Shown: positions 10,410 to 44,117 of the stretch, piece by piece
Layout: every line of letters starts with the position of its first letter
How positions within the stretch are numbered: the first letter of the stretch is position 1
NCBI GenBank assembly: GCA_002269645.1
Contig: NIVC01000211.1
Coordinates: 310,001 to 374,000, forward strand
Origin: Macrostomum lignano
Taxonomy: Eukaryota
Length of the DNA: 64,000 nucleotides
Direction of reading: 5' to 3'
Position numbers and translations under genes: made by a program
The notes under the pieces: generated by a model
What the model was told of the DNA's origin: nothing
Seen by the model: the letters and a program-made list of their open reading frames with translations, nothing else
The model's database searches: none

Positions 10410-13400
10410 TCAACCGGCCACATAGCGATCAACCGGCATCCGCCCACGCATCGGGTAGCGTCTCGGGGGCGGCTCCTCGTCCGCCTCATCGCCGCCGTGC
10501 GCCGCGTGCGCAAAGGGCGGCTGCAGGAAGCGCTCTCCGTCAGGGACTGGCAGGATCCGCGGCCGCAGACGATTCACATTCACCCTGCGGGTCCGTCCGT
10601 TCTCGATCTTTCGAAGTTCGACTACCAGATCCCGCTGCGACAGCACCTGCCAGCCCGGCTCCCAGTACGGCGCCAGCTTGGAGCCCCTCATCTCGATGCG
10701 CAGCAGAACCTCGTCTCCAGGACTGAACGTGCGCAGCTGCCCGGTCGACCTGTCGTAGCCGCTCTTTTGCTCGCCAGCCGCCTGCACCAGATGCTCCTCG
10801 ACAAACTCTCGAATTCGCAGCAGGTCGCCCTCGAGCTTGTCGGCGTAGGTGCGCACGTCATAGAATCGCCTGGACTGCTGGCTGATGACCGGCAGGCTCG
10901 GATCGCGCCCGGTGAACACCTTCAGTGGCGGCAGCTGTGTTGAGCAGTGCACCCGGGAATTGTAGGACAGCAGGATCAGTGGCAGCTTGTCCTCCCACTC
11001 GCTCTCTCGCTCGGTGAAACACCTGAGTAACTGCAGCACTGACTTGTTGCCCGACTGCTAATCCGTTGCCTTTGGGATTGTAAGCCGTTGTTCTTGTCTT
11101 CGGGACTCCCAGGCCTCGCAGAGTGTCTTGAAAAAGCTGAGACTCGAAATTCGGTCCTTGATCGGAGTGGATGACTCGGGGAAGTCCAGTCTGGAAGCAG
11201 ATGGAGAGGAAGGCGCGAGCAGTAGTCTCAGCAGTCTGGTAAGGAATCGCCACGGCCGTCAGGTACTTGAAAAACTGATCCTGAGCCACCAGCAGATATT
11301 TGTTGCCGCGCGATGATGGCGCCACCTTGACGATGTCGATAGCCACAGAATCCCACGGCGAGCCGATTGGCTTGGCAGTTCTCCGAGCGGTGCGCTGGTC
11401 CGCGAGCCCGCTTTCTTCTCCTGACAGACAGAACAACTCTGGCAGTGTTGCACGATGTCTTCAGCCATGCCGGGCCAGTAGGCGGTCAGTTTCAGTGTGC
11501 GGTAGCATTTCTCGGCTCCGAAATGACCTCCCAGACCTTCGTGAGCGTCAAGAACTGTTGTCGAAGCCGCGCTGGCACCACTGGAACCTCCCGCAGGCCG
11601 TCCGGGTCATTGAACTTGCGCAGTAGAACACCGTCATCATCCAGCTTCAGCTTCTTCCAGATTCTGCCGAGTTGCTGCAGTGGTCCTGCTCGCTATCTGG
11701 GTGCAATTTTTGCGTCCTTGTCTATCGCCTGAATCACCTGGCTGAGCTCCGGGTCATGTCGCTGCGCAGTTTTGAGCTCTTCAGTGTCGATTTCCGGAGT
11801 CAGCTGCGTAGCTGCGACTTCTTGACCGTGCAGTCTGGACAGCGCGTCAGCATCTGTGTTCTCAACGCCTCTTCGGTACTTGACGGTGAAGTCGAACTCT
11901 TGAAGCAGCAGACGCCATCGTCCTAACCTGCCGTAGCTGTCAACTCTCTGTGAATCGATGTAGGTGAGCGGGCAGTGATCCGTGTGCACCGTGAAATGCT
12001 TGCCGAGAAGATAGTGGCGAAAAACTTTGAATGCGTGCAAGATGGCCAGGCACTCCTTTTCTGTTGCAGAGTATTTCTTCTCAGCTGAATTGAATGCGCG
12101 GCTTGAGAACTCGATCACCGCCTCGCCTTGCTTCAGAATTACACCGACTCCGCTGCCACTGGCGTCCGTGAAGACTGAGAACTCCTTAGTGAAATCGGGG
12201 TTCACCAGGATCGGAGGACTAATTAGGCACCTTTTGAGCTCGTCGAAGGCCGTCTGGCATTCCGAAGTCCAGTCAAATGGGACGCCCTTGCCAGTCAGAT
12301 GATGCAGCGGTGCGGCGATGGCAGCGAAGTTGGCTTACATGGCGTCGGTATTGGTTGCACAGGCCGATGAACTGACGCACCTCCTTGGCTGACCTCGGCT
12401 CTCTCCACTGCTGAATTGCCTCCAGCTTCTCCTGGCTGGGCTGGGCACCATCCTTTGAATACCGTGTGCCGAGAAAGGTCACTTCGGGTACCGCGATTTT
12501 GCACTTGGAGCCTCTTAATGTCAGTCCGGCTGCTCGAAGTCGCTCGAAGGTCTCTCGAAGTTGCCGCAGATGATCCGACTTGGTCTTTGAGAAGCAGAGG
12601 CTGTCATCGAAGAACGTGAAGACGAAATCGCAGCCGTTGAAAACTTTTGACATTAGCATGCAGAATGTACTTGGGCCCCCGACAGACCTTGGGGCATTCT
12701 CTTAAATTGGTACAGCGGCATCCCTGGTCCCGGACAGAAAGCAGTTTTTAGCTTGTCTTCTTCTGCCATCGGAATTTGAAAATAGCCTCCATTGAGATCC
12801 AACACAGAGAACACTGAACTGCCTGCGATTCGATCTCTTGCCTCCTCCATCAACGGAATTCCCTGTGCAGAGCGAATAGTCTTCTTGTTGATCTCTCGAT
12901 AGTCTATGGTCAGGCGGAGACTGCCATCCTTCGTTGTCACGTACACCGGTGGGGCCACGTATGGACTTTCGCTCAGCTCTATCACGTCGTTCTCCAGCAG
13001 TTCCTGAATCAGCTGCTCTACCTTCTCCCGGTAATGCACAGGCATTCGGCGCGGTGGCACTCGGACAGGTACTTCATCCGAGAGAACAATTCGGTGATGT
13101 TGCAGATGAGTTAGTCCCGGCTTTTTCTTGAACAAGTCTTTGAACTCCACCAGCAGCCGTTGTACATCAGGGTCGTCGGTAGTCGGCAACTCGAACTCTT
13201 CACAGCTGAACTCGGGGACGAGTGCGTCTTCGATGTCAACTGGATCGTCGGTGTCAGCCTGGAATCTGGTGCTGCAGACTTGGCCGGCTTCTTGTGAAGA
13301 TCCTGTGAAGTCCAGTTGCAAATTATGCTTGCCGATGAAGTCGAATCCAACAATGACAGAGCAGACCAAACCTGACACAACGAAAAACAATTGCCGGACT

Positions 13401-13765
13401 GTCACTCCACCGACTGTAAGTGGCAATTCGATTTGCCGTTCTATGCTAATTGGCTGCTTGTTCACTGAATGAAGTCGCACTCTGGCTGCAGTTGCCTGTC
13501 TGAGCTGGGATTTTGTCAGGATGCTGGACTCAACTAGTGAGCACTGGCTTCCGGTGTCTAACAGCGCCTTCACACTTCTGCCATCAAGCTTGCACTCACA
13601 CTGCGATAGTCGGTCGGGCGCGACGCTGCATCCGTCGAAGATCCCGCCGACTGTGAGCGCCGGCCTTGAAGCCGCTGCTGCTGGGCCCGCAGTTACTGCT
13701 GGCCGGGGTTGCGGGCCCGCACACCCCAGCCTCTGGCGTTTCCCGGCTGTCGCCTGCTGTAGCAA
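10410..13765 (-). pseudogene. pol: Pol (protease, RT, RNase H, integrase) broken by several frameshifts into ORFs 12653-13765, 12273-12659, 11693-12205, 10858-11436 and 10410-11039
   Basis: Protease LLDTGS; RT LRLTIDYREIN, LDLNGGYFQI, FFDD; RNase H VFTDASG...YSATEKE...TDH; integrase VAIDIV...HSDQGPNFES...YNPKGNG. Confidence 0.93.
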
Positions 13766-14502
13766 TCTCTGGCAATGTGGCCGGCCTTGTGGCAGTTGTA
13801 GCAGATGATGTCAGACTTCGAACGGTGCTGCGGTCTCGTTGTGCTGCTCGTCCTCACTCCACAGGCTGCCAGCTGCTGCAGCTGGGAACTCAGGGTGCTC
13901 ACCGATGCCTGCAGACTCTGCACAGTGTCCCGCAGCTCCTGAACTTCGCTGGATTGGCTCGACTGAGGTTGCACCGCTGCTGCTGGGATACTTGGCGAGC
14001 TGTGCTGCATCAGTAGCTGGGCCTTTTGAAGAGCTTGCTCTGAGGTCTTAGCGCTGGAGTCCGCGCGAATCTGCCAGCTCACGGATTCGGGAAGGCCACA
14101 GACGAACTGATGGAACAGCAGAGCCTCTTGAGCATCTTTGTTGTCCACGGAGGAGCTTTTGAGCATCTTCTTTAACTCGTAAAGATACATGCGTGGAGTC
14201 TCATTCGACAAAATCTTCCTTGATTTGAACGCCTCCATGACGGCGAAGTGCTCGCGGTTCGGGTGGAATGCATCATCCAATGTCTGGACTACTTTGTCGT
14301 AGTCTGCCTGATCTCCTGCCGACAGTTCCAAATAAACGACGAGAGCCTCGCCATCCAAAAATGTGGCCAGTCGCTCCGCTTTGCACGTGTCCCACTTGTT
14401 GACTTTTGCGCATACATTGAAACGCTGCAGCCATTCCTTAAAGTTGCCGGTACTGAAAACTCTGGGCAGCGCTGCACTGGCGGTCAAACCTTTCTCAGCC
14501 AT
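13693..14502 (-). CDS. gag: Gag with CCHC zinc knuckle, 269 aa
   Basis: CYNCHKAGHIARDC; first ORF after the PBS; overlaps pol in another frame. Confidence 0.92.
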   Translation of the reverse strand: MAEKGLTASAALPRVFSTGNFKEWLQRFNVCAKVNKWDTCKAERLATFLDGEALVVYLELSAGDQADYDKVVQTLDDAFHPNREHFAVMEAFKSRKILSNETPRMYLYELKKMLKSSSVDNKDAQEALLFHQFVCGLPESVSWQIRADSSAKTSEQALQKAQLLMQHSSPSIPAAAVQPQSSQSSEVQELRDTVQSLQASVSTLSSQLQQLAACGVRTSSTTRPQHRSKSDIICYNCHKAGHIARDCYSRRQPGNARGWGVRARNPGQQ

Positions 14503-15607
14503 TCTAGAATAATTTGCTCTGCTACCAGTTGTAGACTAAGGCAGAGAGATACAACTGAGAGTTGACGAAGCCTGTTGGCGTTTATTAGATCGATACGCAG
14601 GTTAAATACGATACAACGATTGTTACATAACTGGGTATAAAAGATAGAGACAGGGGTGGGTGAAAAGCACGTACATGCTGTACAATAGCAACCCCCACCC
14701 CGCTCTAGCGACTGGCGCATACAAGTACACTTGCAACTCACTACACTGTTGCTTACATGCTTTTTGATGAAGGTCTTGTTGCTTACATGCTTTGTGATGT
14801 AGGTCTTGTTGCTTACATGCTTTGTGATGTAGGTCCTGTTGCTTACATGCTTTGTGATGTAGGTCCTGTTGCTTACATGCTTTGTGATGTAGGTCCTGTT
14901 GCTTACATGCTTTGTGATGTAGGTCTTGTTGCTTACATGCTTTTTGATGAAGGTCTTTTTCCTTACATGCTTTGTGATGTAGGTCTTGTTGCTTACATGC
15001 TTTGTGATGTAGGTCCTGTTGCTTACATGCTTTGTGATGTAGGTCCTGTTGCTTACATGCTTTGTGATGTAGGTCTTGTTGCTTACATGCTTTGTGATGT
15101 AGGTCCTGTTGCTTACATGCTTTGTGATGTAGGTCCTGTTGCTTACATGCTTTGTGATGTAGGTCCTGTTGCTTACATGCTTTGTGATGTAGGTCCTGTT
15201 GCTTACATGCTTTGTGATGTAGGTCTTGTTGCTTACATGCTTTGTGATGTAGGTCTTGTTGCTTACATGCTTTGTGATGTAGGTCCTGTTGCTTATATGC
15301 TTTGTGATGTAGGTCTTGTTGCTTACATGCTTTGTGATGTAGGTCCTGTTGCTTACATGCTTTGTGATGTAGGTCCTGTTGCTTACATGCTTTGTGATGT
15401 AGGTCCTGTTGCTTACATGCTTTGTGATGTAGGTCTTGTTGCTTACATGCTTTGTGATGTAGGTCTTGTTGCTTACATGCTTTGTGATGTAGGTCCTGTT
15501 GCTTACATGCTTTGTGATGTAGGTCCTGTTGTTTACATGCTTTGTGATGTAGGTCCTGTTGTTTACATGCTGTCGTTTTGGATACTCTATAGCCTACCTA
15601 GCCCCGT

Positions 15608-16060: not shown

Positions 16061-16889
16061 AGTTTGTCTTTTCTTTTTCTTGCTTTCGTTAATTTTTGCT
16101 TAAAATTATAATTTATCCCAGATGTTCAGACTTGACTGGATCAAGCAGTGATTAGTTAGAAGTTTAGAAATTCCTATTTGTGTTTTACTTTGATATTTTA
16201 CGCAACTAAATTGGTTTGAACTGCTTTTAAATAGTTTTTTATAAGAGTCTAAATCAGTTACACTAGAAGAAAACACGATAGCTGGTATTTTGTGACGAAA
16301 AAGGATATAACTTTTCTATTAATCAAGACGAGTTCTATCATTATTCTATAATTTTCGGCAACTCACGAGCTGACGAGCGCGCTATTCTTGTGCCGACATG
16401 TACTGCCTCTCTCACTTGGACCATTCACCTCAGCTGATGTTTGGCAGCTTGTGCTGTGACGGAGTGACCTAGGTCTCGCATGCTGAACCAGCTGCCCCAG
16501 GGTGGTTAAAGATGCGCACCAAAAGTAAATGAGACTGGACTCTCAACCATCTACGGGCAAAGATTCAAGGGCACCTGTAGTCTAGTCATGGCCGATCTAA
16601 GGGTCTCTGTGCGATGGTATCGACTGAACAGCCCAACAGAGAAATGCTGGTTCGACCCCCTACTACCAGGACCTCTCGACCAATAGAATAATTTCTCAAC
16701 AGTACCGCTCTAACTAAAAATTCCAAAAATATTAACGGATCCTACCCCAGAAACTCGCCATGTTTTCTCAACCTATCGAATCGCAAAGGGCTGAAGCCCC
16801 ATCTGCAATAATCACGCGTCACCACACGCGATCCTCTCCAACTATGGACACTAGCTCTGGACACTCATTCTTGTGTGTCGAATGGACAC

Positions 16890-17447
16890 ACTTCCACAAG
16901 TCATGAACACCCATTTCTCAGTGTCATCGGGTACTCATCCCCAAGTCATGGACACCCATTTATGAGTGTCATTGGGTACTCATCCTCAAGTCACGGACAC
17001 CCATTTCTGAGTGTCATTGGGTACTCATCCCCAAGTCATGGACACCAATTTATTAGTGTCATTGGGTACTCATCCTCAAGTCACGGACACCCATTTCTGA
17101 GTTTCATTGGGTACTCATCCCCAAGTCATGGACACCAATTTATTAGTGTCATTGGGTACTCATCCTCAAGTCATGGACACCCATTTCTGAGTGTCATTGG
17201 GTACTCATCCCCAAGTCATGGACACCAATTTATTAGTGTCATTGGGTACTCATCCCCAAGTCATGGACACCAATTTATTAGTGACATTGGGTACTCATCC
17301 CCAAGTCATGGACACCCATTTCTGAGTGTCATTGGGTACTCATCCCCAAGTCATGGACACCCATTTCTGAGTGTCATTGGGTACTCATCCCTAAAATCAT
17401 GGACATCTACTTCTGAGTGTCTTGGGTACTCATCCCCAAGTCATGGA
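16890..17447. repeat. 45-bp minisatellite (GGGTACTCATCCCCAAGTCATGGACACCCATTTCTGAGTGTCATT), about 12 copies
   Basis: Read directly; 15-aa period in ORF 16875-17486. The last unit is interrupted by the 9.7-kb element. Confidence 0.95.
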
Positions 17448-18338
17448 ACTACTAAGGGATTCCGTATGGCGCGATTTTGGAGGTGAGGTGGGTGTCAACC
17501 CTCCTCGCCTCTCATTGGCTGGCGCCCCGATCACTAGGTGATCGATACCCGTATCGATATCGGCGCTCGGCGCGCGCGCGCCGCAGGCGCGTGGCGCCAA
17601 GCGCCGTCCAGCCGCAGGCGACCCTCCCCAGCCACCGGCGACCCTCCCCAGCCGCAGGCGCACCTACCGATATGTATGCCCACCCTACCGATATGTACCC
17701 CGATATGTACACCCTCCCGAGCCGCAGGCGCACCCTCCCGAGCCGTAGGCGCCCATGCCGCAGACGCCCATGCCGCAGACGCCCATGCCGCAGGCACCCC
17801 GAGTGTACACTCTACCGAGCCGCAGGCACCCCGAGTGTACACTCTACCGATATGTACACTCTACCACTCTCCCGATATGTAGTCAACGATATTAGGCTAG
17901 TGAAAACTACTTATAGTAGGTGAAATTGAGTATATTTACATAAAAATGTAGATAAAACATATTGGTAGGTGAATAATGACGCATATTGCATATTAAAATG
18001 TACATATTGGAGCATATGAGCAGCAAAAACACACAATGTAGGTGTATGGGCAGAAATAGACAAAGCAGGTACTGTAGGCGCTACATAGGTGGAAATACAC
18101 ACAGCAGGTTTACAAAGTGTACTTTCGATACATATCGGATTAATGTATAAAGCAGGTTTACAAGGCATGCATAAGGTGTAGTTGTATAATACAGGCACGC
18201 ATGTATAATCAGATTATAGGCAAACGCCCAGGTGCAACAGACGCGTAAATAATGTCGCACCGACTAAAGAGTAAATATTGTCTAACCCGCAGGTGCATAA
18301 ATATTAAACAAAAGCGGTTCGGGGAAATCCCAAAAGGG
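17448..18338 (+). repeat. Left TIR of the 9.7-kb element (~890 bp), with internal GC-rich subrepeats
   Basis: Reverse complement of 26260-27152. The ORF track shows mirrored identical ORFs (e.g. 17911-18198 and 26402-26689). Confidence 0.95.
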
Positions 18339-18656
18339 AGGTTTTAGCCGCCCGTTTTCGCCACCGCCGCCGCCGCCCTAACCCTCTTATAGGTACAATT
18401 GCGTTGAAAGTATTTCGAGTCATTAGGTTGTAATGACCCTCCATATTTTAGGTGGGTGGACTCGAGCCCGGGGCCAGCCCATTTCAGTTTTTTGGGCCGG
18501 CCCCTCTGCCAATTTCCTCCCTAGGAGCGAGCTATCAGAATTGGTCTTTTAACCCCCGTGTATACACACATAGAGGCCCCCAGCTAGCGCCCATTCTAAC
18601 CTACCCAGTGTACAGTGTTGGGTTCCCCAAACCGCGTACAAAGAGAAATACCCTTA

Positions 18657-19671
18657 TCAGTCAATCTCCATACGCTCCCTCAGGGCTGTCTCGTACGCGG
18701 CCTCTTCCTCCACGCTCTCGAAGCAGTAGTCGGATGACTGGCAATGTGGAAATTATAACAGTCAATGTAGATAGAATATATGCAAGGTATATGATTAGAT
18801 GAGTTGTGTATATAATGTAATATCTTACCAAATCTAAATCGTCCTCCAGCCGCCACAGACGTAGAGACGCTGTATAGCGCACCAACGAAAGGTGCTCCTC
18901 CCAGTTGGAGGGCCATGCGACGGGCTCATCCCACGCAGTTGGCCGCGCTCCCGGACCGGCCAGGTACGCCTCAGAGTCGGGGGCATACGAATTGCGCCCC
19001 ATCAACCAGTCCTGGTGCAGAGTCTCAGCCTCCAACACCTCCCGTAGGCCGGCACCCCTCGCAACCAAAGTATCAAGAACCCGATTAAAGGCTCTGACAA
19101 AGGTAGCTTGGGAGGGCAGCCCGCCAGGATGCCGAGACCTCAGCCAGTCAATGTCCCCGCGGAAAAATGAGGCCACAATGCGAGGAAAGCGCTCACGAAC
19201 CACGGCGATCTCCTCAGACATATCCTCGTCCTCGTCGTCGAAGAGAAGGAGCGTAGCGGCTGATGATATTGAGGCCCGGTGGGAGGTAGTTGAAGCAGCA
19301 GCAGAGACGGGCGTAGTAGAGGCGGCAGCAGCAGAGACGGGCGCAGCAGAGGCAGGGCCGGTTGTGGTCAGCTCCTCAACAGAGACGTCAAAGAGGGCGG
19401 CTGAGGCGGTAGTCAAATCGGAGGCAGTAGCAGCAGGGGCACCGTTCACAACCCCGCCGATAGCCAGCAGCGGGAGGTCAAAAACTTCAGACTCGGTGTC
19501 GCTATCATAGGACATAGCCCAAGCTAGATATTGATCAGCCTCCCAATTATCACTTCCGTTGTTTTCAGTGCCTAGGGGAACTATGTGTTCAGGGATATCC
19601 CCGTCGAGGCTGGTTAACTCTTCAGTCGGGCGATTATTATCCCAGAGGTTGGATAGAGCTCGGCGGGACAT
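18657..19671 (-). CDS. Acidic, Ala/Ser/Thr-rich hypothetical protein, 2 exons: complement(join(18657..18737,18829..19671)), 307 aa
   Basis: First ATG at 19671 (MSRRALSNLWD), TATA-like TATATAATTA at ~19750 (minus). AT-rich intron 18738-18828 (GTAAGA...CCAG, phase 0) leads to SSDYCFESVEEEAAYETALRERMEID*. Confidence 0.6.
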
Positions 19672-19786
19672 GCTAGAATCAACAGAGAGTAAAGTATTAG
19701 AGCTGAGATAGGGTTTGACTCTCTGGAGAGGGGGAAACACTAATTATATAGACGGATCGAGTGAGGCGGTGCGAACCAATAGGAAA

Positions 19787-20320
19787 CTAGCAGTCCCAAC
19801 CCTCGTTAAACAGATTTTCCCAGGGTGGAGATTGGTAGGGTTTGAGACCCATGAGCTGAAGAACATCCACCTCAGTCCCGGCTACCGGAGGCGTGTCTGT
19901 CTTGACTCGCTTGGCTGGAGGGGGTGCCTCAGGTGCCGGCTTGAAGAGCTTGTCCAAACGGGCGGCAAACATCCGGCGCCACAGTTCAGGCGTGAATTCG
20001 ATCGTGTAGCGCCAATTAAACTTTGGGTCCTGATTGAGCCAATTGCGCAGCAAACGGATCCTCCCTCGCGAAGCTTCAACTGCCTTGAAATTGCCCAACA
20101 GGACCCGCTTGTTCACGTGAAGGCGGGCAGCAGCCTCCAGGTCAGGGCGCGCAGCTTCGAGCTTCTTCCACTCTGGCTCGGCCAAGTAGATTGCAGGGAA
20201 GCCGTCCTTCCACACTCCGGCCTCGTTGGTGTAGAGACGCCGAATTTCAATCAAGTTGTGTTCAGTTTCAAATGTGGGCTTCCGCGCCACAAAGTTTTCG
20301 TATAGAGAGATAGAAGACAT
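19787..20320 (-). CDS. Protein with tandem PC4-like (ssDNA-binding) domains, 177 aa
   Basis: IEIRRLYTNEAGVWKDGFPAIYLAEPEWKKLEAARPDLEAA follows the PC4 pattern IDIREYW...G.KGISL.PEQW..L. A weaker second copy is RIRLLRNW...YTIEFTPELWRRM. By-eye alignment only. Confidence 0.6.
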   Translation of the reverse strand: MSSISLYENFVARKPTFETEHNLIEIRRLYTNEAGVWKDGFPAIYLAEPEWKKLEAARPDLEAAARLHVNKRVLLGNFKAVEASRGRIRLLRNWLNQDPKFNWRYTIEFTPELWRRMFAARLDKLFKPAPEAPPPAKRVKTDTPPVAGTEVDVLQLMGLKPYQSPPWENLFNEGWDC

Positions 20321-20559
20321 GATTTAGCAGCAGCAGCAGAGAGCTCTCTGACAGCCGTGCAGCGCCTTATATACCCCCGGGTGGAGGGTGGGGTGGGTGA
20401 TGATTTTGGGGTGATTTTTGATGATTTTGGTTGGTTTTTGGCGATTTATCCAATAACAGGCGAGCTGAGCAGATTTTTTAGTATATATACAGACCCCCAG
20501 AGCCAGGGTAGAGAGATAAATCCTTCTCTCTCCGCTCTCTCACGCTCTCTGTTTGCAAA
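20321..20559. promoter_or_regulatory. Likely bidirectional promoter between the PC4-like gene and pPolB
   Basis: Divergent starts at 20320 (minus) and 20560 (plus); TATA-like TTATATA at ~20367 and TATATATA at ~20483. Confidence 0.45.
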
Positions 20560-23500
20560 ATGGCTAAACGCAGCGCCGCAGCAACTGCTTTCCTGGCTGA
20601 CAAGAGGCAACGTCTTTATGGTAAGTTTTAATTAATTTCTGTCTAGACTGTAGTTGCTAGGGTGGGGTAGGGGCTGAGCAGCAGCAGCAGCTGCAGGGTC
20701 TGTGGGACCGCAGAGTAAACAACAAAGACTGCTGCGACAGCTGCAGGGGTCTAGACTGGAGTTGCTAGGGTAGGGTGCTGCGGCAGGGTCTGTAACAGAG
20801 AGTTGCAGGGGAGGGCTAGACAAGTTTCAGCCGGGTGTGTGCTGATAAGAAATTGCTGCTAGGGGGGTGTTGTCCAGACAGGCTGCAGCTGGGGTGCAAA
20901 TTGCTGCGACAGAGAGTTGCAGGGGTGAGTAAACAAAGACTGGGGTGGGGTGTTGTCTAGACAGGGAGGGGTGTGCTGATAAGAAATTGCTGCAAAAACA
21001 GACAGTTGCTAGGGTGCTGCGGCAGATAAGAAATTGCTGCAGAATCGTTGGGGCAGGCTAGACAAGTTACAGCCAGGTGGGGGCAGAGAGTTGCTGGGAC
21101 TGTGTAGCGCGGGGACAGACTGATAAGAAATTGGCAGGGGCGCTACCCAGACAGGCTGCAGCTAGGTGCAAATTGCTGCGACAGAGAGTTGCAGGGGTGA
21201 GTAAACAAAGACTGCTGCGACAGGGAGGGGTGTGCTGATAAGAAATTGCAGAGAGTTGCTGCGGGGACAGCAGAGTAAACTCTGTTAAGAAATTGCTGGG
21301 GCTAGGGCGGGGAAACACGCTGGGGCCAGGAAAATGACAGATTCTTCTGGTTTTTTATCTCCTTGTGTTTTTTCAGACGCGTTTGTCCCGCCAACACAGC
21401 CGGAATCTGTTACCGGACCGGGTGAGTTATCCAGCCCCCATTTCCCACACAGACCCTGGCTGACTCACACTCCCCCATTCCCCCATGCAGGTTTTACGGC
21501 CCGGCTGGATAATCAGCGTGACCTGCCCAAGTTTAGGGCAAAGGGTGTCGAGTATGTGGTGCATATTACCAACACCGAAGATTTGCGGGAGGTGTTTGCT
21601 GACATGCTCGAAGTTTTCAAGCAAGATTTGGCTGGTGATGACTTTATGGCCGCGAAATTCGAGAGCGACAATATGCTCAAAGCGGCCCACACTCCCCCGG
21701 TGCGTGCATCCCGCATGACGGCTGAATTGTTGTTTAAGCACATCAACAAGATTGTGCAGTCGGATGCCACTGTCCTGACGGGCAACTTTTCTATCCGGTT
21801 GCTAAAGGCCTGGGTGCCTCGAGGTGGATGTGCTCTCGAGAACAAGCATCTAGAAGAGCGGCACGCCTTCTCCAAGCACTATGTCCGCATCACCAACTCG
21901 GACAAGAGATGCCTGCTGCGCGCTCTGGTCGTGGCCTGCGCCTACCTGCAATTCGTGGCCAAGTCCATCACCAAGCGGGTGTGGCACACAATCAAGGCCA
22001 ATTCGCCCACGCAGACTAAGCTGGTGGCTGAGCTACAAATCGAAGCTGGCCTCTACACGGTAAGTTTCTAGTATTTTTCTGATAAGAATTTTTACACAGT
22101 ATCGTGGAATACTAAAAGATATATTTTCTGATAAGAATTTTTACACAGTATCATGGAATACTAAAAGATATATTTTCTGATAAGAATTTTTACACAGTAT
22201 CGTGGAATACTAAAAGATATATTTTCTGATAAGATTTTTTACACAGTATCAGGGAATACTAAAAGAAATATTTTACCCTCCACACAGACTCTTCAAACCG
22301 TCTCGCAGGCTGGTCCTTTCGGGGTGGATGCACTGCCCGAAGCGATCCGTGCCCTGAACCGGCTGCATCCAGGGCACGATTTTGGTGTACGCGTGTACCG
22401 CGCAGAGGAGGCCAACAGGTGCATCTTCAACCTGCCGGGCACCGAGATTCTGCACCTACACCTGGTCGAGCAGCACTTTAATGTGGTCACCAAGCTGCCT
22501 GCGTTTTTCGGCAGCCACCACTACTGCGACAAGTGCGAGATGGCCCACGACTGCAATAATGAGAAGCACAAGTGCGCTGATGCCTGCAGCACATGCAAGA
22601 CTCCGGGCTCCAACTGTAAGGCAAACCGCGCATATGTAAGATGCCATGATTGCGGGCTAAATTGCTATAATGCTCAGTGCCTAGAAAATCACAAGCGCAA
22701 GAATAAGGCCGGCAGATCGCGCTGTGATTCGGTCCACGTTTGCGGCACGTGTGGCTATCTAGAAGAACTAAAAGTAGGCCAGCCCCCTGAGCATCAGTGT
22801 GGTTACGCCAAGTGTCCAGTCTGCAAGCAGTACGACGAAACTGCCACCCACGAGTGCTTTGTCACCCCGCCCAAAGCCAAAGAGTCTAGCGCCCCGTATG
22901 TTTACTATGATTTCGAGACGTACGTGGACTCTGGCAAGCAGCACCGGGTACACTTGGTTACGGCTGCCACCTCCTGCGAGGCGTGTCCCAAACTCTTCCC
23001 CAGGCCCGCTGCAGCGTGTGCGGGGACTACACAGCTCAGCCAATTGCATTGCGGGACGCGATTTGGCGCTCGATTTCACGAGCTGTGTCTCGCACAATGA
23101 CTGTGCCTGTGGGATGCGAGAGTTTGTATCTGTCGGGCCGCACTCTATCGATGCCTTTTACTGCTGGCTGACTAGTGTGTTCAAGCAGGGGGCAATTGCT
23201 ATTGCGCACAATGGCTCTGCGTATGACGCATTCCTCCTGCTCGGCGCCCTACTCAACGGACTGGCCAAGAAGAAGCCGCAAGTGATCTTCCAGAACAGCC
23301 GCCTAATGTATATGAAGTGCGACAAGATCACCTTCAAGGACAGCCTCAATTTCATCCCTATTGGTCTGGCGCAATTCCCAAAGGCGCTTGGTTTGGGCAC
23401 CCAACTGACCAAAGGAGATTTCCCGCACGTGTTTAACCAGCCGGAAAATTGGGGGTACGTGGGACCCTACTGCTCAATTGATATGTATGGAGGAAAGAAA

Positions 23501-25664
23501 AACAAGCAGCATGACTCCATCGCAGACTGGCTGGCCAAGCAGGAGGGACAGGTGTTTAATTTCAATAAGGAGTACCTGGACTACTGCCTGCAGGACACGT
23601 TAATTTTGCGGGAAGGCTGTCTAAAGTACACCCGCCTGATTAAGGACATTTGCGGACTGGACGCATTTGTTCAATCCAACACCATTGCGGGCTTGGCTAT
23701 GGCTGTTTTCACCACCAAGTTTATGGAGCCCAACACTCTTGGGGTGATTTCCCGCCGGTCCGATGTACAGTCGCACAAGGCGCGGTGCTGGCTGCGCATT
23801 TGAATGCAACCGAGTTTGGCGGCCGGTTGCGGACAGCGGACTCGGGCGGCGAGGCTTTCGCCATGGGCCGTAAGGTCGACGGCTTCGACCCAGAGACCAG
23901 GACAGTGCTGCAGTTTCATGGCTGTTTCTACCATGGCTGTCCCAAGTGCTTCCCCAACGGCGACGTGCTGCACCCGCTCAAGAACCAGCCAATGCGGGCG
24001 ATTTATGAGGAGACTGAGCGCTTCACCCGGTTGCTCTCCACTGCATACAATGTGCGTGTTCTGTGGGAGCACGACTATCAGGACGAGGGAGCGCCAGTCC
24101 AGCAGCCTATTCACCTGGAGGATGCCCTGTTTGGCGGCCGTACCGAGGCTTTTGTCCCGCACGCCGAGGCCACCGAGACTGTAGAGCTGCGCTATCGGGA
24201 TGTGGTAAGTTTGTACACTTGTACACACACAGTTGACATGCGTTTGAGTTTATCTTATCCTCTAATTCTCTATTATCCTTATCCCCTAGGTGTCGCTCTA
24301 CCCGACTGTCAACAAGTTTGACAAGTACCCGGTCGGGCACCCGGTACACCACCCCGAGCCTCATCTACTGGATGAGCTGCAGCTGGCCCGGTATTTTGGC
24401 ATCGCCGAGGTGTCGATTCTGCCGCCAACCAATCTCCACATCCCGCTACTGCCCGCCAAGATTAACAAGAAGTTGGTTTTCGGCCTCTGCCGCGTCTGCA
24501 TGGAGACACAGTGCAGCAGCGAGTGTACACACACTGACGCTGAGAGAATGCTCCGCGGCACGTGGTCGACCCCAGAGCTCCACAAAGCCCTGCAGTTGGG
24601 TTACAAGCTGCAGTCAGTTCATGCCCTGGCCTATTGGACCGAGACTCGCACGGGCCTGTTTGCAGATTATGTAAACACTTTTTTGAAGCTCAAAGCCGAG
24701 TCTAGCGGTTCGCCGGGGATGGCTGAGGACGCCAAGGCTGCCTACATGGCCAGCTTTTTCGAGCGCGAAGGCGTCCGGCTGGAAAAGGTGGAGGAGAATC
24801 CTGGCTTGCGCTTTGTGGCCAAGATTTTTCTAAACTCGTAAGTTTTTTCTACTTGCAGTGGGGCCGTGTTTTTCTACTTACAAAAAAAAATTTATTTTTC
24901 CCTGCAGGCTCTGGGGCAAATTCTGCCAGCGCGACGACCTGACCTCCACAGAGATTGTGGACAGCTACGAGGCGTGGCTGCAGCGCCTGACCGACCCCTC
25001 GATCAAGGTCAAGTCGTGCGAGCCAATTGGGGAGAGCTTCATGATGCTCGAGTACAAGCCCCGATTTGGCGGTGCTGGCGAGCGGGCGTTCAAGTACGCT
25101 AATGTACCTATTGGCGTTTTCACCACCTCCCACGCCCGGCTGCGACTCTACGAGGCTCTGGAGGGTCTAGGAACCCGCGTCATTTACGCCGATACTGATT
25201 CGTGAGTAATTTTTTCAACTGTCTCTGTCTCTCTTTCTCCCTTAACACTTTATCCTTCTCCTCCTCCCAGGGTCGTATACCGCTGCTCTCCGGGCGAGTA
25301 CGAGCCTCCGGGCGGTTCGAGTTTGGGGCAGTGGACTGACGAGGTACCTGCTGGCTGCCGCATGGTACAGTTCACCACGGGAGGCCCCAAGCTCTACCGG
25401 TACGTGGTGGAGAAGCCTGACGGGTCGCTGTACTCGGTGCTCAAGTGCAAGGGCATCAGAGTCACACCCGAGATTTCCGAGCGCGAGGACGAGCTGCAGG
25501 AAATTCTGCGTCACGGCGGGACTGTACGCCTGCCCCAGGCCCAGTTCAGGCGCGATAAGGCTAGCTGTACAATCCGGACCCTCGAGATGGACAAGACTTT
25601 CCAGCGCGTAATGACTAAGAGGGCGTATGGGGCCGCCAGCCGTCCGTATGGCTTTCGTGAGTGA
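20560..25664 (+). CDS. Protein-primed DNA polymerase B, 6 exons: join(20560..20620,21377..22059,22309..24204,24290..24837,24908..25201,25271..25664), ~1290 aa; frameshifts near 23000 and 23795
   Basis: vOTU-like ITNSDKRCLLRAL...QHFNVV; Exo I YYDFETY; Exo II AHNGSAYD; KDSLNF; Exo III YCLQDT; VSR-like VDGFDPETRTVLQFHGCFYHGCPKCF; FGGRTE. After splicing, the motifs read RDV|VSLYP, KIFLNS|LWGKF and YADTDS|V; KCKGI follows. All five GT-AG introns preserve the frame. Confidence 0.92.
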
Positions 25665-25829
25665 GTGAAAGATAAGGATCTATCTTTTTTACGCCTGGGA
25701 TTCCCCTATGTGCCCACTTGGGATCCCTTGACTCTTGGGGTTGAAAAATGGTTTTACGCCCGCACTGTACTTAGGGGTCCTTACTCTTTTGGCACCTCCA
25801 CTGTACATTGAGCGGGATCCCCTCAAGTG

Positions 25830-26075
25830 TTAAAACTCCCATTTGACACCTATTCCCTCGGGGCGGTTTGTGGCCCAGCGGTCCGCCTCTTGGAGTAGAA
25901 CTCCTGACATAAACTTGCTGCGCTGATTAGCGTACTGATAGCGCAATCGAAATACGTCCATTTTTCTAGCCCACTTGTGGGTACATTTACGTTGAAAGAT
26001 GTTGATGCGTTCAATAACGTTGTAATAATAATAAGTCTCCACATCATAGGGCGGCGAAACCTCCCTTTTGCTCAT
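25830..26075 (-). CDS. Small hypothetical ORF, 81 aa, aromatic and basic
   Basis: ATG-initiated, inside the element and convergent with pPolB; no recognisable motif. Confidence 0.3.
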   Translation of the reverse strand: MSKREVSPPYDVETYYYYNVIERINIFQRKCTHKWARKMDVFRLRYQYANQRSKFMSGVLLQEADRWATNRPEGIGVKWEF

Positions 26076-26259
26076 CTATTTTAGACAATAATGAGACTCT
26101 GACCCCGGGAGGTTAATGGCTGAGCGGGTAACCCTGGCGGTATAAAACAGGGTGACCCAGGCTCGATTCCTGGCTGGGGGCTGTAGACTTTTCCGGCCCC
26201 TGCGTCACTATTGGGTTTAATTGTGTTGAAAGTATATCGGGTCATTAGGTCGTGAACCA

Positions 26260-27152
26260 CCCTTTTGGGATTTCCCCGAACCGCTTTTGGTTAAAATTTT
26301 TATGCACCTGCGGGTTAGACAATATTTACTCTTTAGTCGGTGCGACATTATTTACGCGTCTGTTGCACCTGGGCGTTTGCCTATAATCTGATTATACATG
26401 CGTGCCTGTATTATACAACTACACCTTATGCATGCCTTGTAAACCTGCTTTATACATTAATCCGATATGTATCGAAAGTACACTTTGTAAACCTGCTGTG
26501 TGTATTTCCACCTATGTAGCGCCTACAGTACCTGCTTTGTCTATTTCTGCCCATACACCTACATTGTGTGTTTTTGCTGCTCATATGCTCCAATATGTAC
26601 ATTTTAATATGCAATATGCGTCATTATTCACCTACCAATATGTTTTATCTACATTTTTATGTAAATATACTCAATTTCACCTACTATAAGTAGTTTTCAC
26701 TAGCCTAATATCGTTGACTACATATCGGGAGAGTGGTAGAGTGTACATATCGGTAGAGTGTACACTCGGGGTGCCTGCGGCTCGGTAGAGTGTACACTCG
26801 GGGTGCCTGCGGCATGGGCGTCTGCGGCATGGGCGTCTGCGGCATGGGCGCCTACGGCTCGGGAGGGTGCGCCTGCGGCTCGGGAGGGTGTACATATCGG
26901 GGTACATATCGGTAGGGTGGGCATACATATCGGTAGGTGCGCCTGCGGCTGGGGAGGGTCGCCGGTGGCTGGGGAGGGTCGCCTGCGGCTGGACGGCGCT
27001 TGGCGCCACGCGCCTGCGGCGCGCGCGCGCCGAGCGCCGATATCGATACGGGTATCGATCACCTAGTGATCGGGGCGCCAGCCAATGAGAGGCGAGGAGG
27101 GTTGACACCCACCTCACCTCCAAAATCGCGCCATACGGAATCCCTTAGTAGT
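26260..27152 (-). repeat. Right TIR of the 9.7-kb element
   Basis: Near-identical to the left TIR for ~850 bp; diverges in the innermost ~40 bp. Confidence 0.95.
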
Positions 27153-28015
27153 CATGGACACTCACCAAAAGGACTTCCTAACCCCCTGACCCGTCTCCGA
27201 CATGCCAATCAGCGACGTGCGCCAGACCGACTCTTTCTACCTTCCTACCGCTCCTTGGGTAGGGATGCCTTAGAGTCATCGGCTGTAATTATCTCACTGA
27301 AGCCATGCTCTCGTATCCTTACAAGAACCGAAGGCGTGTAAGCATGTGCACATGGTGCTCTCAAATGGCATGACTTTAAAGCTGCCTCAACGTTTTTTGA
27401 GCAAATGCTCCGCTCTTTTGTCTATGACCATGTTTTTATTCTTACTGACTGGAGCAATTGCTCTGCAGCCGAGAACTTTCTCATGAATCTGAGTTTGAGC
27501 ATTTGCTCAGTTTATTCATACGGCCTAATTTTTTTATTTCCACTCCCAGATGTCAGCTTTTCCACGGTGTTTTTCACGGTAGACAATGGCTCTTTTAAGC
27601 CTACAAAATATCGTCAATGCAGAAGGGACTGTCAACTTAGAATTTTAATGGAAAAGGCTAATTAACACAGCGGATATCCGCGTGCCGGTGTCGAATACCA
27701 GTGCGTTGGACCGAAGGCAGAGCAGCTCAGCGGTAGAGTGTACATGACTGACGATTAGAGTGCTGTGCCTGCGTACAGCACTGGTGCGCTTGTATGTGCT
27801 CAGGAGCCAGCGGAATGGAAAGAATTGCCTCGGACGAATGTCTCTGAAAGCGTTGTTCCAGGATGCCCACAGCGCATCATTAATATTTTTATTTTCATTA
27901 CTACTACTATTGCTACTATTATTATTAATATTATTATTATATTCTGAAAATTTAACTTGGGCCGGCAATAAGTGAAGGTGAAATATCATTGAAAACCATT
28001 TCTCTCTACGTCAGA

Positions 28016-34381: not shown

Positions 34382-35559
34382 ATAGACAAGCAGTAGCTGT
34401 TGGTGTGGTGTAAAAGTGTTTTGTAACTACTGGCAGTCTTCTTGTTGGTATGCATTCCTATCTCTTATTTTCCCAGTTGTATACATCACTTCCATACATC
34501 TGTCTATGTAGGTATCTATCTATGTGTGCGATCGATTTCAGAAAAAAACGGCTCAACCGATTTTTCTCAAACTTACACGATTCAATCACAAATTTTCCCG
34601 TGACGGCAGCTACATGTTTCGTAGATAAGAAATTGCATGAATTATTGCACTGGCTGAGAAAAGGATTATTGCACTTTATGAGTAAAATATTATTGCACTA
34701 GTTGAGGAAATTTTGCACTAGCTACTTGCCATTTGGGGGTTGCTTGCTGTCTGGGAGATGCTTTCTATTTACGGGGAATGTCTGCTATCTTTGTGAAGGC
34801 TTTATTTTATTTTCTCCTTTTGTTACTTTTAGAAATAAAAGAGATTCATACATAACAAACATCTTTGTCCGTGACAAGTTTAATTAAAAAAGGTCATCTA
34901 TAAAACTGAAGAAGGAACTGGTTCTTTAAAAAAAGTAGCATAATAGCATAAATAATTATTGTTTCATGCTTATTGGCCGCCCCGAAGGTTGTTAGTATCA
35001 TCGAAACCTATTGCATAACAGGACATCGTCTTTGGGTTTAGGCTAATGAGACATACATTTAAAAATCATGAATTTGATATTTCAGTACTTCATGACATAT
35101 TCACTTAGTTATATAGACTTTCGGTTCCTGGCATGAAGAAATGTTTTTTGTGAATAAAACCCGAGTTTTATAATGTCAATTTGTTTATGCTTAGTATTAA
35201 GGAGAAATTATATGCAATGGTAGATCTCCTTCCAGTATTCTTCACTCGATTGTACGCGCACTCATTAACCCCAGAGTTTGCAGACCGCGGCATCTCTTAG
35301 GCGGGTCAGCTAGGTAGCACAATGGCATGGCTCTTTTTAGGGGTTTACAGCCCCAGGCCCTGACCGATGCTTTTGTGTGCTGCGAGACGAACTGTACGCG
35401 CGGCTATTGTACCCGAGCAGTTTTAGTGTGCAGCCAGCTCTTACTCACTGTTCTTTTCTAACTTGTATTTAAGCGTCGAGACAGTGCACAGTTAGCAAGA
35501 TAACTACTTTTGAGAAATTTTTGTGCGTTTCTTCGTTAACAATAAGATAGAGAGACTCA

Positions 35560-37098
35560 ATGGCTGAATCAGTTGATGGTGGAATCGAGGTCCGGTCCAT
35601 GCAAACGGTACTTGGCCTCGATGATGAAGGTATTCCAACCAGCGACACCTACAACGTTGTTGTGAAAGACCATGGAACAAAGTCTGGCATGAAATACGAC
35701 AGTGTCTGCATCACTCCGGCTGCTGAACTCACTTACGATGAGTTGCCTGAGAAGACACTGCAGGTGCTATTCACCAAGGAAGAGCAGCACGACGGACTCA
35801 GCTATGCAACCATTGCTGTCCATGAAACCCCGGTAGAGTACAATGAATCTACCACCATGTCGAGGATCGTCCACCTAAGAGGTAGCAAAAGATCGACTCT
35901 CGATGCGGATGGTCAAAAACAGGAAGGTGTGATCGCCTCCGACTCTGATACCCAAAACAGCATTCGATATGGACGCGTGCCTGATTCAGGTGGATCAAGT
36001 CAACAGTTCGGAGTCATGGAATCCAATCCCGAGGCTCACATGGGAATAAGGACAGGAGCTTCAAGCAACGACGAGCAAGAGGGCGTCTTCGCATCCGACC
36101 CTGAAGCTTTAAAGTACATCAAGTTCGGTCCGAAGCCTGGAGCGAAAGCCAGTGGAGCGTCGAGCAATGACGAGCAGGAGGGCATCTTTGCCTCAGACCC
36201 TGAAGCTCTAAAATACATCAAGTTCGGTCCGAAAGACGGTGCCTCGAGCAACGACGAGCAGGAAGGCATCTTTGCGTCGGACCCGGAGGCCATGAAGTAC
36301 ATCAAGTTAGGTCCGAAGCCTGGAGCAAAAGCTAGTGGAGTGTTGAGCATTGGCGAGCAAGAAGGCATCTTCGCGTCAGACCCCGAAGCTCTAAAGTTAA
36401 TCAAGTTCGGTCCGAAAGACGGTGCCTCGAACAACGACGAACAAGAGGGCGTCTTCGCATCCGACCCTGAAGCTTTAAAGTACATCAAGTTCGGTCCGAA
36501 GCCTGGAGCTAAAGTCGGTGGAGCGTCGAGCAATGACGAGCAAGAGGGCGTCTTCGCATCCGACCCTGAAGCTCTGAAGTACATCAAGTTTGGCCCGAAG
36601 CCCGGAACGTCAAGCAACGACGAGCCGGAGGGTATCTTTGCGTCAGATCCAGAAGCCCTGAAGTACATCAAGTTCGGTCCAAAACCTGAAGCTAAAGCCA
36701 CTGGAGCGTCAAGCAATGACAAGCAGGAAGGCATCTTTGCGTCCGACCCGGAGGATTTAAAGTACTTTAAGCTCAGTCCTGAGCCTGCAAAGCAAGAGGA
36801 GAATCCACCAAAGGATCAAAAAGTTGTAGAATTCGGTACGGAAGCCCAGTCGGCTACGCTTGAAGAAGGCGAATTTGTAGCCGAGGCGACTGGTGTGCAA
36901 CTCAAAGACGAAAAGACCTACACGGTGAGAGTCACTGGTCACGATCTGCCCTATGGCCAACAGAAGAAATTCATCTCCGTGCGCAGCGCCGACGGAAGCG
37001 GAGGCCTGACGCCCCAGGAGGTCGACAACTTGGATGTCAAAGTGGAAACTTGCGTTGGAGAAGACGGAATGGTGGAGAAGTTCGTTGTGGTTGAGTAG
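35560..37098 (+). CDS. Intronless 512-aa acidic protein with ~8 repeats of SSNDEQEG(V/I)FASDPEALKYIKFGPK; cadherin-like features
   Basis: Long ATG-initiated ORF. The repeat units differ at synonymous positions, which suggests it is coding. VIASDSDTQNSIRY resembles the cadherin A-x-D-x-D...I-x-Y motif. Confidence 0.7.
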   Translation: MAESVDGGIEVRSMQTVLGLDDEGIPTSDTYNVVVKDHGTKSGMKYDSVCITPAAELTYDELPEKTLQVLFTKEEQHDGLSYATIAVHETPVEYNESTTMSRIVHLRGSKRSTLDADGQKQEGVIASDSDTQNSIRYGRVPDSGGSSQQFGVMESNPEAHMGIRTGASSNDEQEGVFASDPEALKYIKFGPKPGAKASGASSNDEQEGIFASDPEALKYIKFGPKDGASSNDEQEGIFASDPEAMKYIKLGPKPGAKASGVLSIGEQEGIFASDPEALKLIKFGPKDGASNNDEQEGVFASDPEALKYIKFGPKPGAKVGGASSNDEQEGVFASDPEALKYIKFGPKPGTSSNDEPEGIFASDPEALKYIKFGPKPEAKATGASSNDKQEGIFASDPEDLKYFKLSPEPAKQEENPPKDQKVVEFGTEAQSATLEEGEFVAEATGVQLKDEKTYTVRVTGHDLPYGQQKKFISVRSADGSGGLTPQEVDNLDVKVETCVGEDGMVEKFVVVE

Positions 37099-40275: not shown

Positions 40276-40333
40276 ATTAAGTTAATAGACAGTAGAATGC
40301 ATGAGGGGGCTTCTGGGACAAAATTTTTCACGT

Positions 40334-40630
40334 CCTCCATAATCCACCTAAATCCATCCATATTATCCCTGACAGAATCAGAAAAAAAGGGGGGTCGCAC
40401 TTGCTCCGAAAACGTCCTCCATAATCCCATTAAATCCATCCATATTATCCCCGACAGAATCATAAAAAAGGGGGGTCGCACTCGCTCACAAAACGTCCTC
40501 CATAATTCACCTAAATCCATCCATATTATCCCTGACAGAATCATGAAAAAGGGGAGGGGCCGCACTTGCTCCGAAAACTTCGAACATAATCCCATTAAAT
40601 CCATCCATATTATCCCTGACAGAATCAGAG
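40334..40630. repeat. ~82-bp subterminal tandem repeat (about 4 units) inside the Polinton TIR; mirrored at ~56330-56630
   Basis: CATAAT unit starts at 40338, 40420, 40501 and 40585. Confidence 0.9.
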
Positions 40631-40832
40631 CAGGTGTCCACTGATACCTGTTATGCTCACTGACACTGACATAATCCACTGACATCCACCCATAGCATTT
40701 TCGAAACAATAAGAAAATAATCTGCATTCTTCTTCCCACATTCAATTTGCAACGCGAAACCAGATCCCTAAAACTTTAAATCATCAGCGCAGGGTCCTTA
40801 CCCATTGAAAAAAATCTAATTTTTCTCTAAAA

Positions 40833-41072
40833 ATGTTTCCAGTTGTCTCTCCAGGTTCTTATTACAAAGCGCACGAGCCTAATTACAAGAGTAAGTACCA
40901 ATGCAAGAAGGAATGCAGCGAGTACATGAGAAAATATTGGCCCGATGTTGATATCAATGCCCCTAATATTAATCTAGCTCTTCAAAGACACTGGTTTCAT
41001 AAGTACGGAGTAACCTGCGTAAAAGATTACGACAGCTATTATAACTTTGCAGAAGTTATAAGGCAGTTGTAG
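40833..41072 (+). CDS. 79-aa RNase T2-like fragment inside the left TIR
   Basis: MRKYWPDV....PN....LQRHWFHKYGVTC resembles the RNase T2 segment MR.YWPDV....PN...FWKHEWEKHGTC. Confidence 0.5.
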   Translation: MFPVVSPGSYYKAHEPNYKSKYQCKKECSEYMRKYWPDVDINAPNINLALQRHWFHKYGVTCVKDYDSYYNFAEVIRQL

Positions 41073-41131
41073 TAGCCAACTACAAGGTTGTACCTGGCGG
41101 CTTATATCAATGTTACAAGTCTGAAGACGAC

Positions 41132-41989: not shown

Positions 41990-42010
41990 TTTTTTATTGA
42001 AAAAAATTAT

Positions 42011-43306: not shown

Positions 43307-43338
43307 TTTTTTTAACTAAAAATAAAATAAAATAAGAA

Positions 43339-43851
43339 ATGAAGCGAAAAAGTACACAGCAGATATCTGAATTGGAGAAGCTAGCACAAGCAGAGAAACG
43401 AGTTACCGGACTAATAAATAAGGAGCAACAATCCTACAATGAGTTTGTCCAAGCAGCCACAGAGTTTCATAAGCCTGGGTATGGAGAAGCTAAGAAAAAT
43501 ATTGATCAAGTCAAAGAAACTATCGACGACATACAGGAAACCCAAGTGCAAAAGGTTTTGGGCAAAATTCCAGAAGCACCACAGATACAACCGCAGCGAC
43601 AGATACAGCCACAACCACAACAATCACAACAACAACAATCACAACCACAACAACAGCAACTAAAAGTGACAGATAACATTTTTGGACCAGTAGAGCGTGT
43701 AGAACATGATGGGAAATATGTATTTGGAATAAGTATGTGGAGAAAAAATATTTATAATGAACCAGTGAATAATATATCAACATTAAGGAAAATATTTCTG
43801 TTGTCAAAGGCTCAGAAACTAAGAGCATTCCTTTCACAGAAACCTTACTGA
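43339..43851 (+). CDS. Polinton hypothetical protein, Gln-rich, 170 aa
   Basis: ATG after an A-rich leader; divergent from the MCP; no recognised domain. Confidence 0.6.
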   Translation: MKRKSTQQISELEKLAQAEKRVTGLINKEQQSYNEFVQAATEFHKPGYGEAKKNIDQVKETIDDIQETQVQKVLGKIPEAPQIQPQRQIQPQPQQSQQQQSQPQQQQLKVTDNIFGPVERVEHDGKYVFGISMWRKNIYNEPVNNISTLRKIFLLSKAQKLRAFLSQKPY

Positions 43852-43856
43852 ATTTT

Positions 43857-44082: not shown

Positions 44083-44117
<35 letters not shown>

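Follow-up and report, generated by a model that had tools for sequence, protein, structure and literature searches.

Animal Polintons (Mavericks) are among the closest described systems to the one reported here. A Polinton is defined by a retrovirus-like integrase in the same element (PMC5499653), polymerases that match Pfam PF03175 have been called the "Alpha" class (PMC8502044), terminal-protein and vOTU domains are fused to the polymerase (pPolB) in Polintons (PMC11071308), and vertebrate Mavericks are reported to be intronless (PMC8097293). Here we analyse a pPolB gene with six spliced introns, and the element that carries it, in a stretch of 64,000 nucleotides from Macrostomum lignano (contig NIVC01000211.1, positions 310,001 to 374,000 of the forward strand; hereafter the window, in which position 1 is the first letter). 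The element, referred to as segment 1, is best explained as the replication half of a bipartite Polinton, the other half of which (segment 2) carries the integrase and virion genes and no polymerase. We put the probability of this reading at roughly 0.72. Each segment is found in two lineages, giving the families A1 and B1 (segment 1) and A2 and B2 (segment 2); the window element is an A1 copy.

Segment 1 encodes the polymerase, a PC4-like protein and the product of one accessory gene, and nothing else (Table 1). The polymerase matches PF03175 (E-values 1e-15 and 1e-12, with pieces of exons 4 and 5) and belongs to the "Alpha" class, so segment 1 encodes the pPolB expected of a Polinton. The integrase and virion genes that a Polinton should carry in the same element are located on segment 2: queries with integrase, capsids, protease, ATPase and TBP matched none of 36 segment-1 copies at an E-value of 0.01. 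The accessory gene is present in 21 of 36 polymerase segments tested, and its intron is spliced out in the contigs described below. The PC4-like open reading frame (ORF) has an Atlas score of 0.86 for PC4, which serves as a lead only, and is 31% identical (E-value 5e-11) to a Polinton ORF of this genome whose family includes a member matching Pfam PC4; an ordinary Polinton family of this genome thus carries a PC4 gene homologous to it. Single-sequence folding of the protein gave no usable model (predicted local distance difference test score of 36). A host gene or domesticated copy is ruled out by the many insertions with distinct duplications; the 6-bp target-site duplication is seen in 29 of 31 A1 copies.

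As a 6-bp duplication leads one to expect a Polinton-type integrase (PMC8097293), 20 loci were sampled from the integrase families of the genome. Most of the sampled loci with a readable end start with AGTAG, and one family, segment 2, has the terminal sequences of the polymerase element. The A2 copies (n = 9) are typically 10.3-10.7 kb long with 650-nucleotide terminal repeats, two being longer, one through a duplicated end and the other through an insertion. Their genes, all continuous ORFs, encode Fic, a TBP-like protein, an rve integrase, minor and major capsid proteins, a protease and an ATPase; rve, Fic and TBP are called by Pfam. The core genes of segment 2 are free of introns, as reported for vertebrate Mavericks; segment 1, with its six introns, departs from this. 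The capsid protein scores 0.98 to double-jelly-roll clusters and is 28% identical (E-value 3e-40) to another Polinton capsid; a PDB sequence search with it returned no match. The B2 family has the same gene order without Fic, ends in ACTACGT, and encodes an integrase 81% and a capsid 88% identical to those of A2. The 6-bp duplication is found in 7 of 9 A2 and 5 of 8 B2 copies (a second analysis added one more in B2). Seven TATAAATA motifs lie on the coding strand of segment 2 and none on the other strand, which, together with the segment's own TBP-like gene, suggests a possible early/late division. One segment-2 copy (G000:C150, L148/L153) has, after a duplicated ATPase region, an outer right end with sub-terminal DNA of segment-1 type, and is a possible recombinant between the segments.

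The genes are partitioned between the two elements. A profile of 71 pPolB homologues matches 36 of 36 segment-1 copies (E-value of 5e-52 or lower) and none of 16 segment-2 copies (best E-value 0.08), nor was a polymerase of the other class matched when it was looked for in segment 2. Searching the genome with exon 5 gave 56 loci of lineage A and 40 of lineage B, counting fragments, with all 134 candidates scored; capsid loci number at least 58 among the best 150 of 314 candidates, scored down to 31% identity. No fused form was found among these capsid and 96 polymerase loci. Both segments occur as recent, independent insertions at unlinked sites, and the three capsid/polymerase pairs that share a contig are 47, 166 and 469 kb apart.

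The ends of the two segments are shared. They consist of an invariant 7 nucleotides followed by a mosaic variant block of about 21 nucleotides, with 28 distinct 27-mers among 61 A1 ends; left and right ends are identical in 18 of 29 A1 copies. Eight of the 16 A2 ends are identical to some A1 end over 28 nucleotides, and the mean distance to the nearest end is 1.1 from A2 to A1, 3.6 from B1 to B2 and 5.0 from B2 to B1, as against 11.5-13.3 across lineages. The window element has all 32 terminal bases (32/32) in common with the A2 copy C181, and no other DNA. With unrelated interiors, the segments could hardly maintain one pool of fast-changing termini without exchanging ends, which we take as an indirect sign of co-replication. 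The two marks of a segmented virus, i.e. complementary essential genes on separate molecules and matching termini (exact in A, near in B), are thus both found; that the segments would also replicate together and be packaged in virions is hinted at indirectly by the common end pool, the uniform sizes and the conserved capsid. The hypervariable combinatorial block (17448-17479, and the ends of all related elements) adjoins the likely replication origin. The 220 matches of the family-A 32-mer do not count the copies of segment 1, since the 32-mer also occurs in B2 and in palindromic elements.

A cycle that would fit these observations begins with splicing of the segment-1 polymerase mRNA by the host. 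Its own terminal-protein domain would let the polymerase prime on the shared ends and copy both segments as free linear DNA, and co-replicating molecules would swap ends, keeping the pool of variants common. The segment-2 integrase would return either segment to the chromosomes, and the segment-2 capsid would package each segment of about 10 kb separately. The two segments are probably dependent on each other. At its fullest, the proposal is that an animal germ line harbours a multipartite virus of the Polinton/adenovirus lineage with a genome of double-stranded DNA. Its two segments would be packaged and integrated separately and be accompanied by palindromic satellites; the early segment would be spliced by the host, the late one would lack introns and bring a TBP-like factor of its own, and a recombining 28-nucleotide terminal "barcode" would separate two sister lineages. 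This fuller version is tentative, the odds falling slightly short of even.

Table 1. Features of segment 1 and its polymerase gene in the window.
Feature	Position	Strand	Basis or remark
Segment 1 (A1), replication segment	17448..27152	none	9,705 bp, ends ACTACTA...TAGTAGT
Target-site duplication CATGGA, left copy (6 bp)	17442..17447	+	read from sequence
Target-site duplication CATGGA, right copy (6 bp)	27153..27158	+	read from sequence
Left terminal inverted repeat	17448..18305	+	858 nt at 100% (898 nt at 99.4%)
Right terminal inverted repeat	26295..27152	-	pairs with left repeat
Terminal 32 nt: invariant ACTACTA plus hypervariable block	17448..17479	+	same as ends of segment-2 copy G000:C181
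Accessory gene, no convincing family	18657..19671	-	spliced intron 18738-18828; stop read from sequence
PC4-like gene, 177 aa	19787..20320	-	likely single-stranded-DNA binding, predicted
pPolB exon 1	20560..20620	+	splice joints, copy comparison
Intron 1, 756 nt	20621..21376	+	487-1188 nt in other copies
pPolB exon 2, 45 nt	21377..21421	+	splice joints, copy comparison
Intron 2, 69 nt, GTGAGT...CAG, in frame, no stop	21422..21490	+	spliced in X1, X3, X4
pPolB exon 3, likely coding for the terminal-protein domain and the first part of the vOTU protease	21491..22059	+	aligns to 35/71 homologues
Intron 3, 228 nt, with 49-nt tandem repeat	22060..22287	+	22060-22308 in the sequence-only reading
pPolB exon 4: Cys-rich region, exonuclease, VSR-like insert	22288..24204	+	three one-base breaks in window copy
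Intron 4, inside motif A	24205..24289	+	interrupts RDV/VSLYP
pPolB exon 5	24290..24837	+	splice joints, Pfam, copy comparison
Intron 5, inside motif B	24838..24907	+	interrupts LNS/LWGK
pPolB exon 6	24908..25201	+	splice joints, copy comparison
Intron 6, inside motif C	25202..25270	+	interrupts YADTDS/V
pPolB exon 7, ends at stop codon	25271..25664	+	sequence, copy comparison

Twenty-five further elements have the same ends, and gene queries matched them only through inserted foreign DNA. They were drawn from end-pattern matches without a polymerase and are a non-random sample. Most are 8-10 kb long, arms reach 4.6 kb in the palindromes where they could be resolved, and 13 of the 15 A elements and 9 of the 10 B elements have the 6-bp duplication. 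Examples of about 9 kb, many of them nearly perfect palindromes, are G000:C530:311650-321350 and C903:100600-110450 (L192-L211, L074-L083), and the arms are partly mosaics of the terminal repeats of the segments. These gene-less palindromes are likely parasites of the segment pair. Sizes in all six element classes fall near 9-10.5 kb, against 16.4 kb for the neighbouring one-piece Polinton, and a packaging limit would account for such uniformity. Moreover, among the four segment-2 genes for which A and B were compared, the capsid gene is the best conserved (88% identity; proportion of nonsynonymous differences, pN, 0.063). Both points tell against a two-component transposon without virions, in which complementation would be real but confined to one nucleus, and which departs from the bipartite Polinton only as regards packaging. 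For this alternative it can be said that no particles were seen, that scans of viral contigs for close relatives found none, and that the close homologues all carry one species label. We consider it rather unlikely; that real particles are formed is a cautious suggestion, a little less than evenly balanced.

The polymerase gene had been described in the sequence-only reading as having five spliceosomal introns, three of them in the catalytic motifs A, B and C. To these we add splicing data from four public runs of four studies, kept as contigs and mapped on 18310-26290 of segment 1; X1, X3 and X4 are RNA-like by the tool's guess, none being recorded as RNA, and X16, of unrecorded kind, behaves as DNA. 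The joints 20620/21377, 24204/24290, 24837/24908 and 25201/25271 are present in contigs of X1, X3 and X4 (three studies); X16 has none of these, and its deep coverage continues through the introns, as expected of DNA. All five introns are genuine: they have donors GT(A/G)AGT and acceptors YAG where these had been placed, they are spliced in RNA-like contigs, and the last three cut motifs A, B and C exactly as proposed. Their GT-AG ends, pyrimidine-rich 3' ends and exact removal in the RNA-like runs but not in the DNA-like run identify them as U2 spliceosomal introns. The count was one short, as intron 2 had been overlooked. Intron 3 is indeed spliced, but to an acceptor at 22287 rather than 22308 (in X1, and in X4 with a two-letter difference, and unlisted in X3), a choice made among the joints listed, with eight weaker ones beyond these; 22308 may be in minor use. 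The reading frame of the window copy is interrupted, its long exon 4 having three one-base breaks.

Neither transcripts that never splice at these sites nor homologues that translate the inserts were encountered: three RNA-like runs are spliced, and the motif junctions lie without an insert in 71 homologues from other organisms. There are no extra residues at the motif A junction in 66 of these 71, and there is only the split codon at motif B in 71/71 and at motif C in 58/71. An active enzyme requires splicing at all three motifs, as had been claimed. The further claim that introns would conceal such elements from ORF-based screens is only partly true, since pieces of exons 4 and 5 still match PF03175 and UniRef contains automatic gene models; the missing integrase and capsid, held by a complementary partner, would hide segment 1 from Polinton screens more than its introns do. 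The near-identical sequences in the databases are gene models in UniRef under the name Macrostomum lignano, a flatworm used as a laboratory animal, and the next relatives beyond those are animal proteins of about 29-41% identity. Exons 3 and 4 can be aligned with the N-termini of homologues, a Cys and a His being conserved, and the protein may have a terminal protein-vOTU-exonuclease-palm order. Between exonuclease and palm is the VSR-like stretch FHGCFYHGC, which we take to be a VSR motif; one homologue in the database carries the VSR name.

The three breaks in exon 4 (two near 23.0 kb, one near 23.8 kb) are private to the window copy or assembly errors: none of the four runs agrees with the window at the first two, nor does any of the three with coverage at the third. 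All seven exons are open in 11 of the 31 A1 copies examined, and the ratio of pN to the proportion of synonymous differences (pS) among these 11 is 0.106 (55 pairs). Purifying selection acts on the polymerase family, which is transcribed and spliced. The 31 copies have nearly constant exon lengths and variable intron lengths, each of the six introns having been typed in 28-31 of them; in C1158 alone the donor of the motif A intron is altered. Insertion of the introns after decay of the gene is ruled out by their fixed positions together with their splicing. The window copy is inserted at the end of a 45-bp tandem array (16793-17447), the unit of which holds the duplicated site. A subfamily of segment 1 (G000:C1247, C173, C3939, C24) is without the accessory gene, has terminal repeats of 1.2-1.4 kb and differs at the PC4 C-terminus. 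An intronless pPolB remnant, 38% identical, was also found (C234), with no integrase or capsid ORF seen beside it.

Lineage B polymerase elements are 9.5-9.7 kb long with ends ACTACGT, the 6-bp duplication being present in 5 of 7 copies, and their polymerase proteins are 64-71% identical to those of lineage A. Introns at motifs A, B and C are present in 7/7, 7/7 and 5/7 of the B1 copies typed, and counterparts of introns 2 and 3 are also in place in one B1 copy read by eye. As the motif introns are common to lineages only 64-71% identical, they are old and have been retained; probably they were gained once, before the A/B split. Purifying selection is seen on both halves of the system, pS and pN between A and B being 0.72-0.76 and 0.20-0.24 for pPolB, and 0.64-0.81 and 0.06-0.15 for the four segment-2 genes. 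The mechanism first offered for the motif introns, a regulated on/off switch or a device to evade silencing, has in its favour that each of the motifs A, B and C holds one intron, three or more of six falling in motif windows with a chance of 1e-4 to 3e-3 under uniform placement (the windows were set post hoc), and that the positions are retained in lineage B although its introns cannot be aligned in sequence with those of A. However, ordinary introns also persist over long times, mobile introns aimed at conserved sequence would give the same positions, and spliced forms are found in all three studies, in contigs that are uninformative on regulation. We regard a switch as unlikely. The motif introns may descend from mobile introns that target conserved sequence, may serve regulation, or may be selected because the unspliced product is catalytically dead.

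Several points weigh against a bipartite Polinton. The basis is one assembly and run contigs, from which free DNA, particles and trans-complementation are predicted; the assembly consists of 5,269 contigs, and the end-pattern matches listed are 100 of 220 and 100 of 137. Pfam support for the segment-2 protease and ATPase is weak, and they were named by motifs, position and likeness to other Polinton copies. In lineage B, exact matches between B1 and B2 ends are absent (0/14), the sub-terminal DNA of B2 resembles that of A1 and not that of B1, and PC4, present in 30 of 31 A1 copies, is found in none of five B1 copies. Values of pS near 0.75 are saturated and so show only that both splits are old. 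Lastly, ordinary one-piece Polintons are plentiful (at least 151 integrase matches, from the best 150 of 2,646 candidates) and could supply the missing functions.

This last point is the core of a further explanation, in which the segments are independent and each parasitises ordinary AGTAG Polintons, segment 1 borrowing integrase and capsid and segment 2 a polymerase. Some of these Polintons have a full intronless polymerase, the PC4-like gene of segment 1 has its homologue among them, and nesting is seen both ways: an A1 copy lies, with a 6-bp duplication, in the capsid gene of another Polinton family (G000:C4072:8000-26000), and Polintons lie inside A-type elements (C106, C271). Maverick integrases can also act on AC...GT ends, as reported in the swamp eel (PMC8097293). 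Their ends are nevertheless AGTAG and not ACTAC, and independent parasitism leaves the common A1/A2 end pool, the pairing in lineage B and the complementary gene sets unexplained, so that it appears quite improbable. Least probable is that both segments are deletion derivatives of a one-piece ACTAC master, lost or absent from the assembly: the assembly is fragmented, the searches covered the best candidates of longer lists and the two segments together roughly make up a Polinton gene set, but the same two deletions would be needed in two old lineages, the A1 and A2 terminal repeats are unrelated beyond 32 nucleotides, both halves are under purifying selection, and no fused locus was found among the 58 capsid and 96 polymerase loci.

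The window also contains a one-piece Polinton at 40291-56670, with ends AGTAGA, the duplication ATAGAC, an rve integrase, a double-jelly-roll capsid, an adenovirus protein X-like ORF and a polymerase of the other class. Its polymerase, described in the sequence-only reading as a continuous ORF, is in this assembly three overlapping ORFs, the breaks looking like frameshifts rather than introns. On account of its ends and polymerase class it is not favoured as a helper. The 21-kb locus C106, taken for a one-piece helper with the same ends as the segments, is really an AGTAGTA-ended Polinton nested in a gene-less ACTACTA element. Two copies of an AGTAGTA-ended Polinton, at G000:C106 and C84 (L071-L073, L116-L118), share an internal loss that removed most of the polymerase gene; PC4, TBP and chromodomain-integrase genes are also present in this family. 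At G000:C592:149000-158999 (L145), C1313, C2301 and C3189, integrase or capsid genes occur as inverted pairs, 5-10 kb apart, which suggests fold-back Polinton derivatives with genes in their arms. Elsewhere in the window are a Gypsy-like gag-protease-reverse transcriptase remnant (12653-14535, minus strand) and a 515-aa ORF (35551-37098, plus strand) with an alternating 84/99-nucleotide repeat and a weak match to the ATP:guanido phosphotransferase N-terminal domain.

If the bipartite Polinton is real, segmentation has arisen in the double-jelly-roll lineage of double-stranded DNA elements, and the system offers a model for the way in which segmented pPolB viruses such as bidnaviruses, and linear plasmids without a capsid, could have emerged from Polintons. 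As neither half satisfies the usual definition of a Polinton, such systems would go unrecognised or be taken for debris. Whether animal Polintons form virions, a question long open, would become testable by seeking particles in unmanipulated animals. In the full-text literature, which excludes Repbase, subscription journals and supplements, we found no description of a segmented Polinton, a spliced Polinton polymerase or these families.

With animal Polintons/Mavericks (Alpha adintoviruses; PMC8097293, PMC8502044), the system has in common a PF03175-class pPolB, an rve integrase, a double-jelly-roll capsid, a protease, an ATPase, long terminal repeats, the 6-bp duplication and triplet-repeat ends. 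It differs in that its genes are on two elements, in that pPolB has six spliced introns and vertebrate Mavericks none, in its 5' ends, (ACT)2 being the reverse of the usual (AGT)2, and in its hypervariable terminal block. The VSR-containing pPolB2 of marine nematode and mollusc Polintons likewise has a VSR-like stretch between exonuclease and palm, but these are one-piece Polintons, and the main text does not mention pPolB introns (PMC10748475). Spliceosomal-type introns are also found in the introner-containing Polinton-like elements of dinoflagellates (bioRxiv 10.1101/2025.03.18.643946), where they are described as mostly recent insertions in single copies; here all six introns are fixed throughout the family, have unrelated sequences and are shown to be spliced. 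Polinton-derived cytoplasmic linear plasmids (PMC11071308) resemble segment 1 in having pPolB, few genes and terminal repeats without a virion module, whereas segment 1 is nuclear, spliced and integrated, with a virion module that persists on a partner element. Bidnaviruses and the Drosophila Vesanto virus share with the present system a segmented genome, an Alpha-class pPolB on one segment and matching termini (PMC8502044, PMC8363768). They are, however, parvovirus-like single-stranded DNA viruses with NS1 and a single-jelly-roll capsid (PMC11071296), and no integrase is named for them in the passages cited. Here the capsid is double-jelly-roll-like, NS1 is absent from the Pfam matches of the scanned ORFs, the partner carries Polinton virion genes, and both segments integrate.

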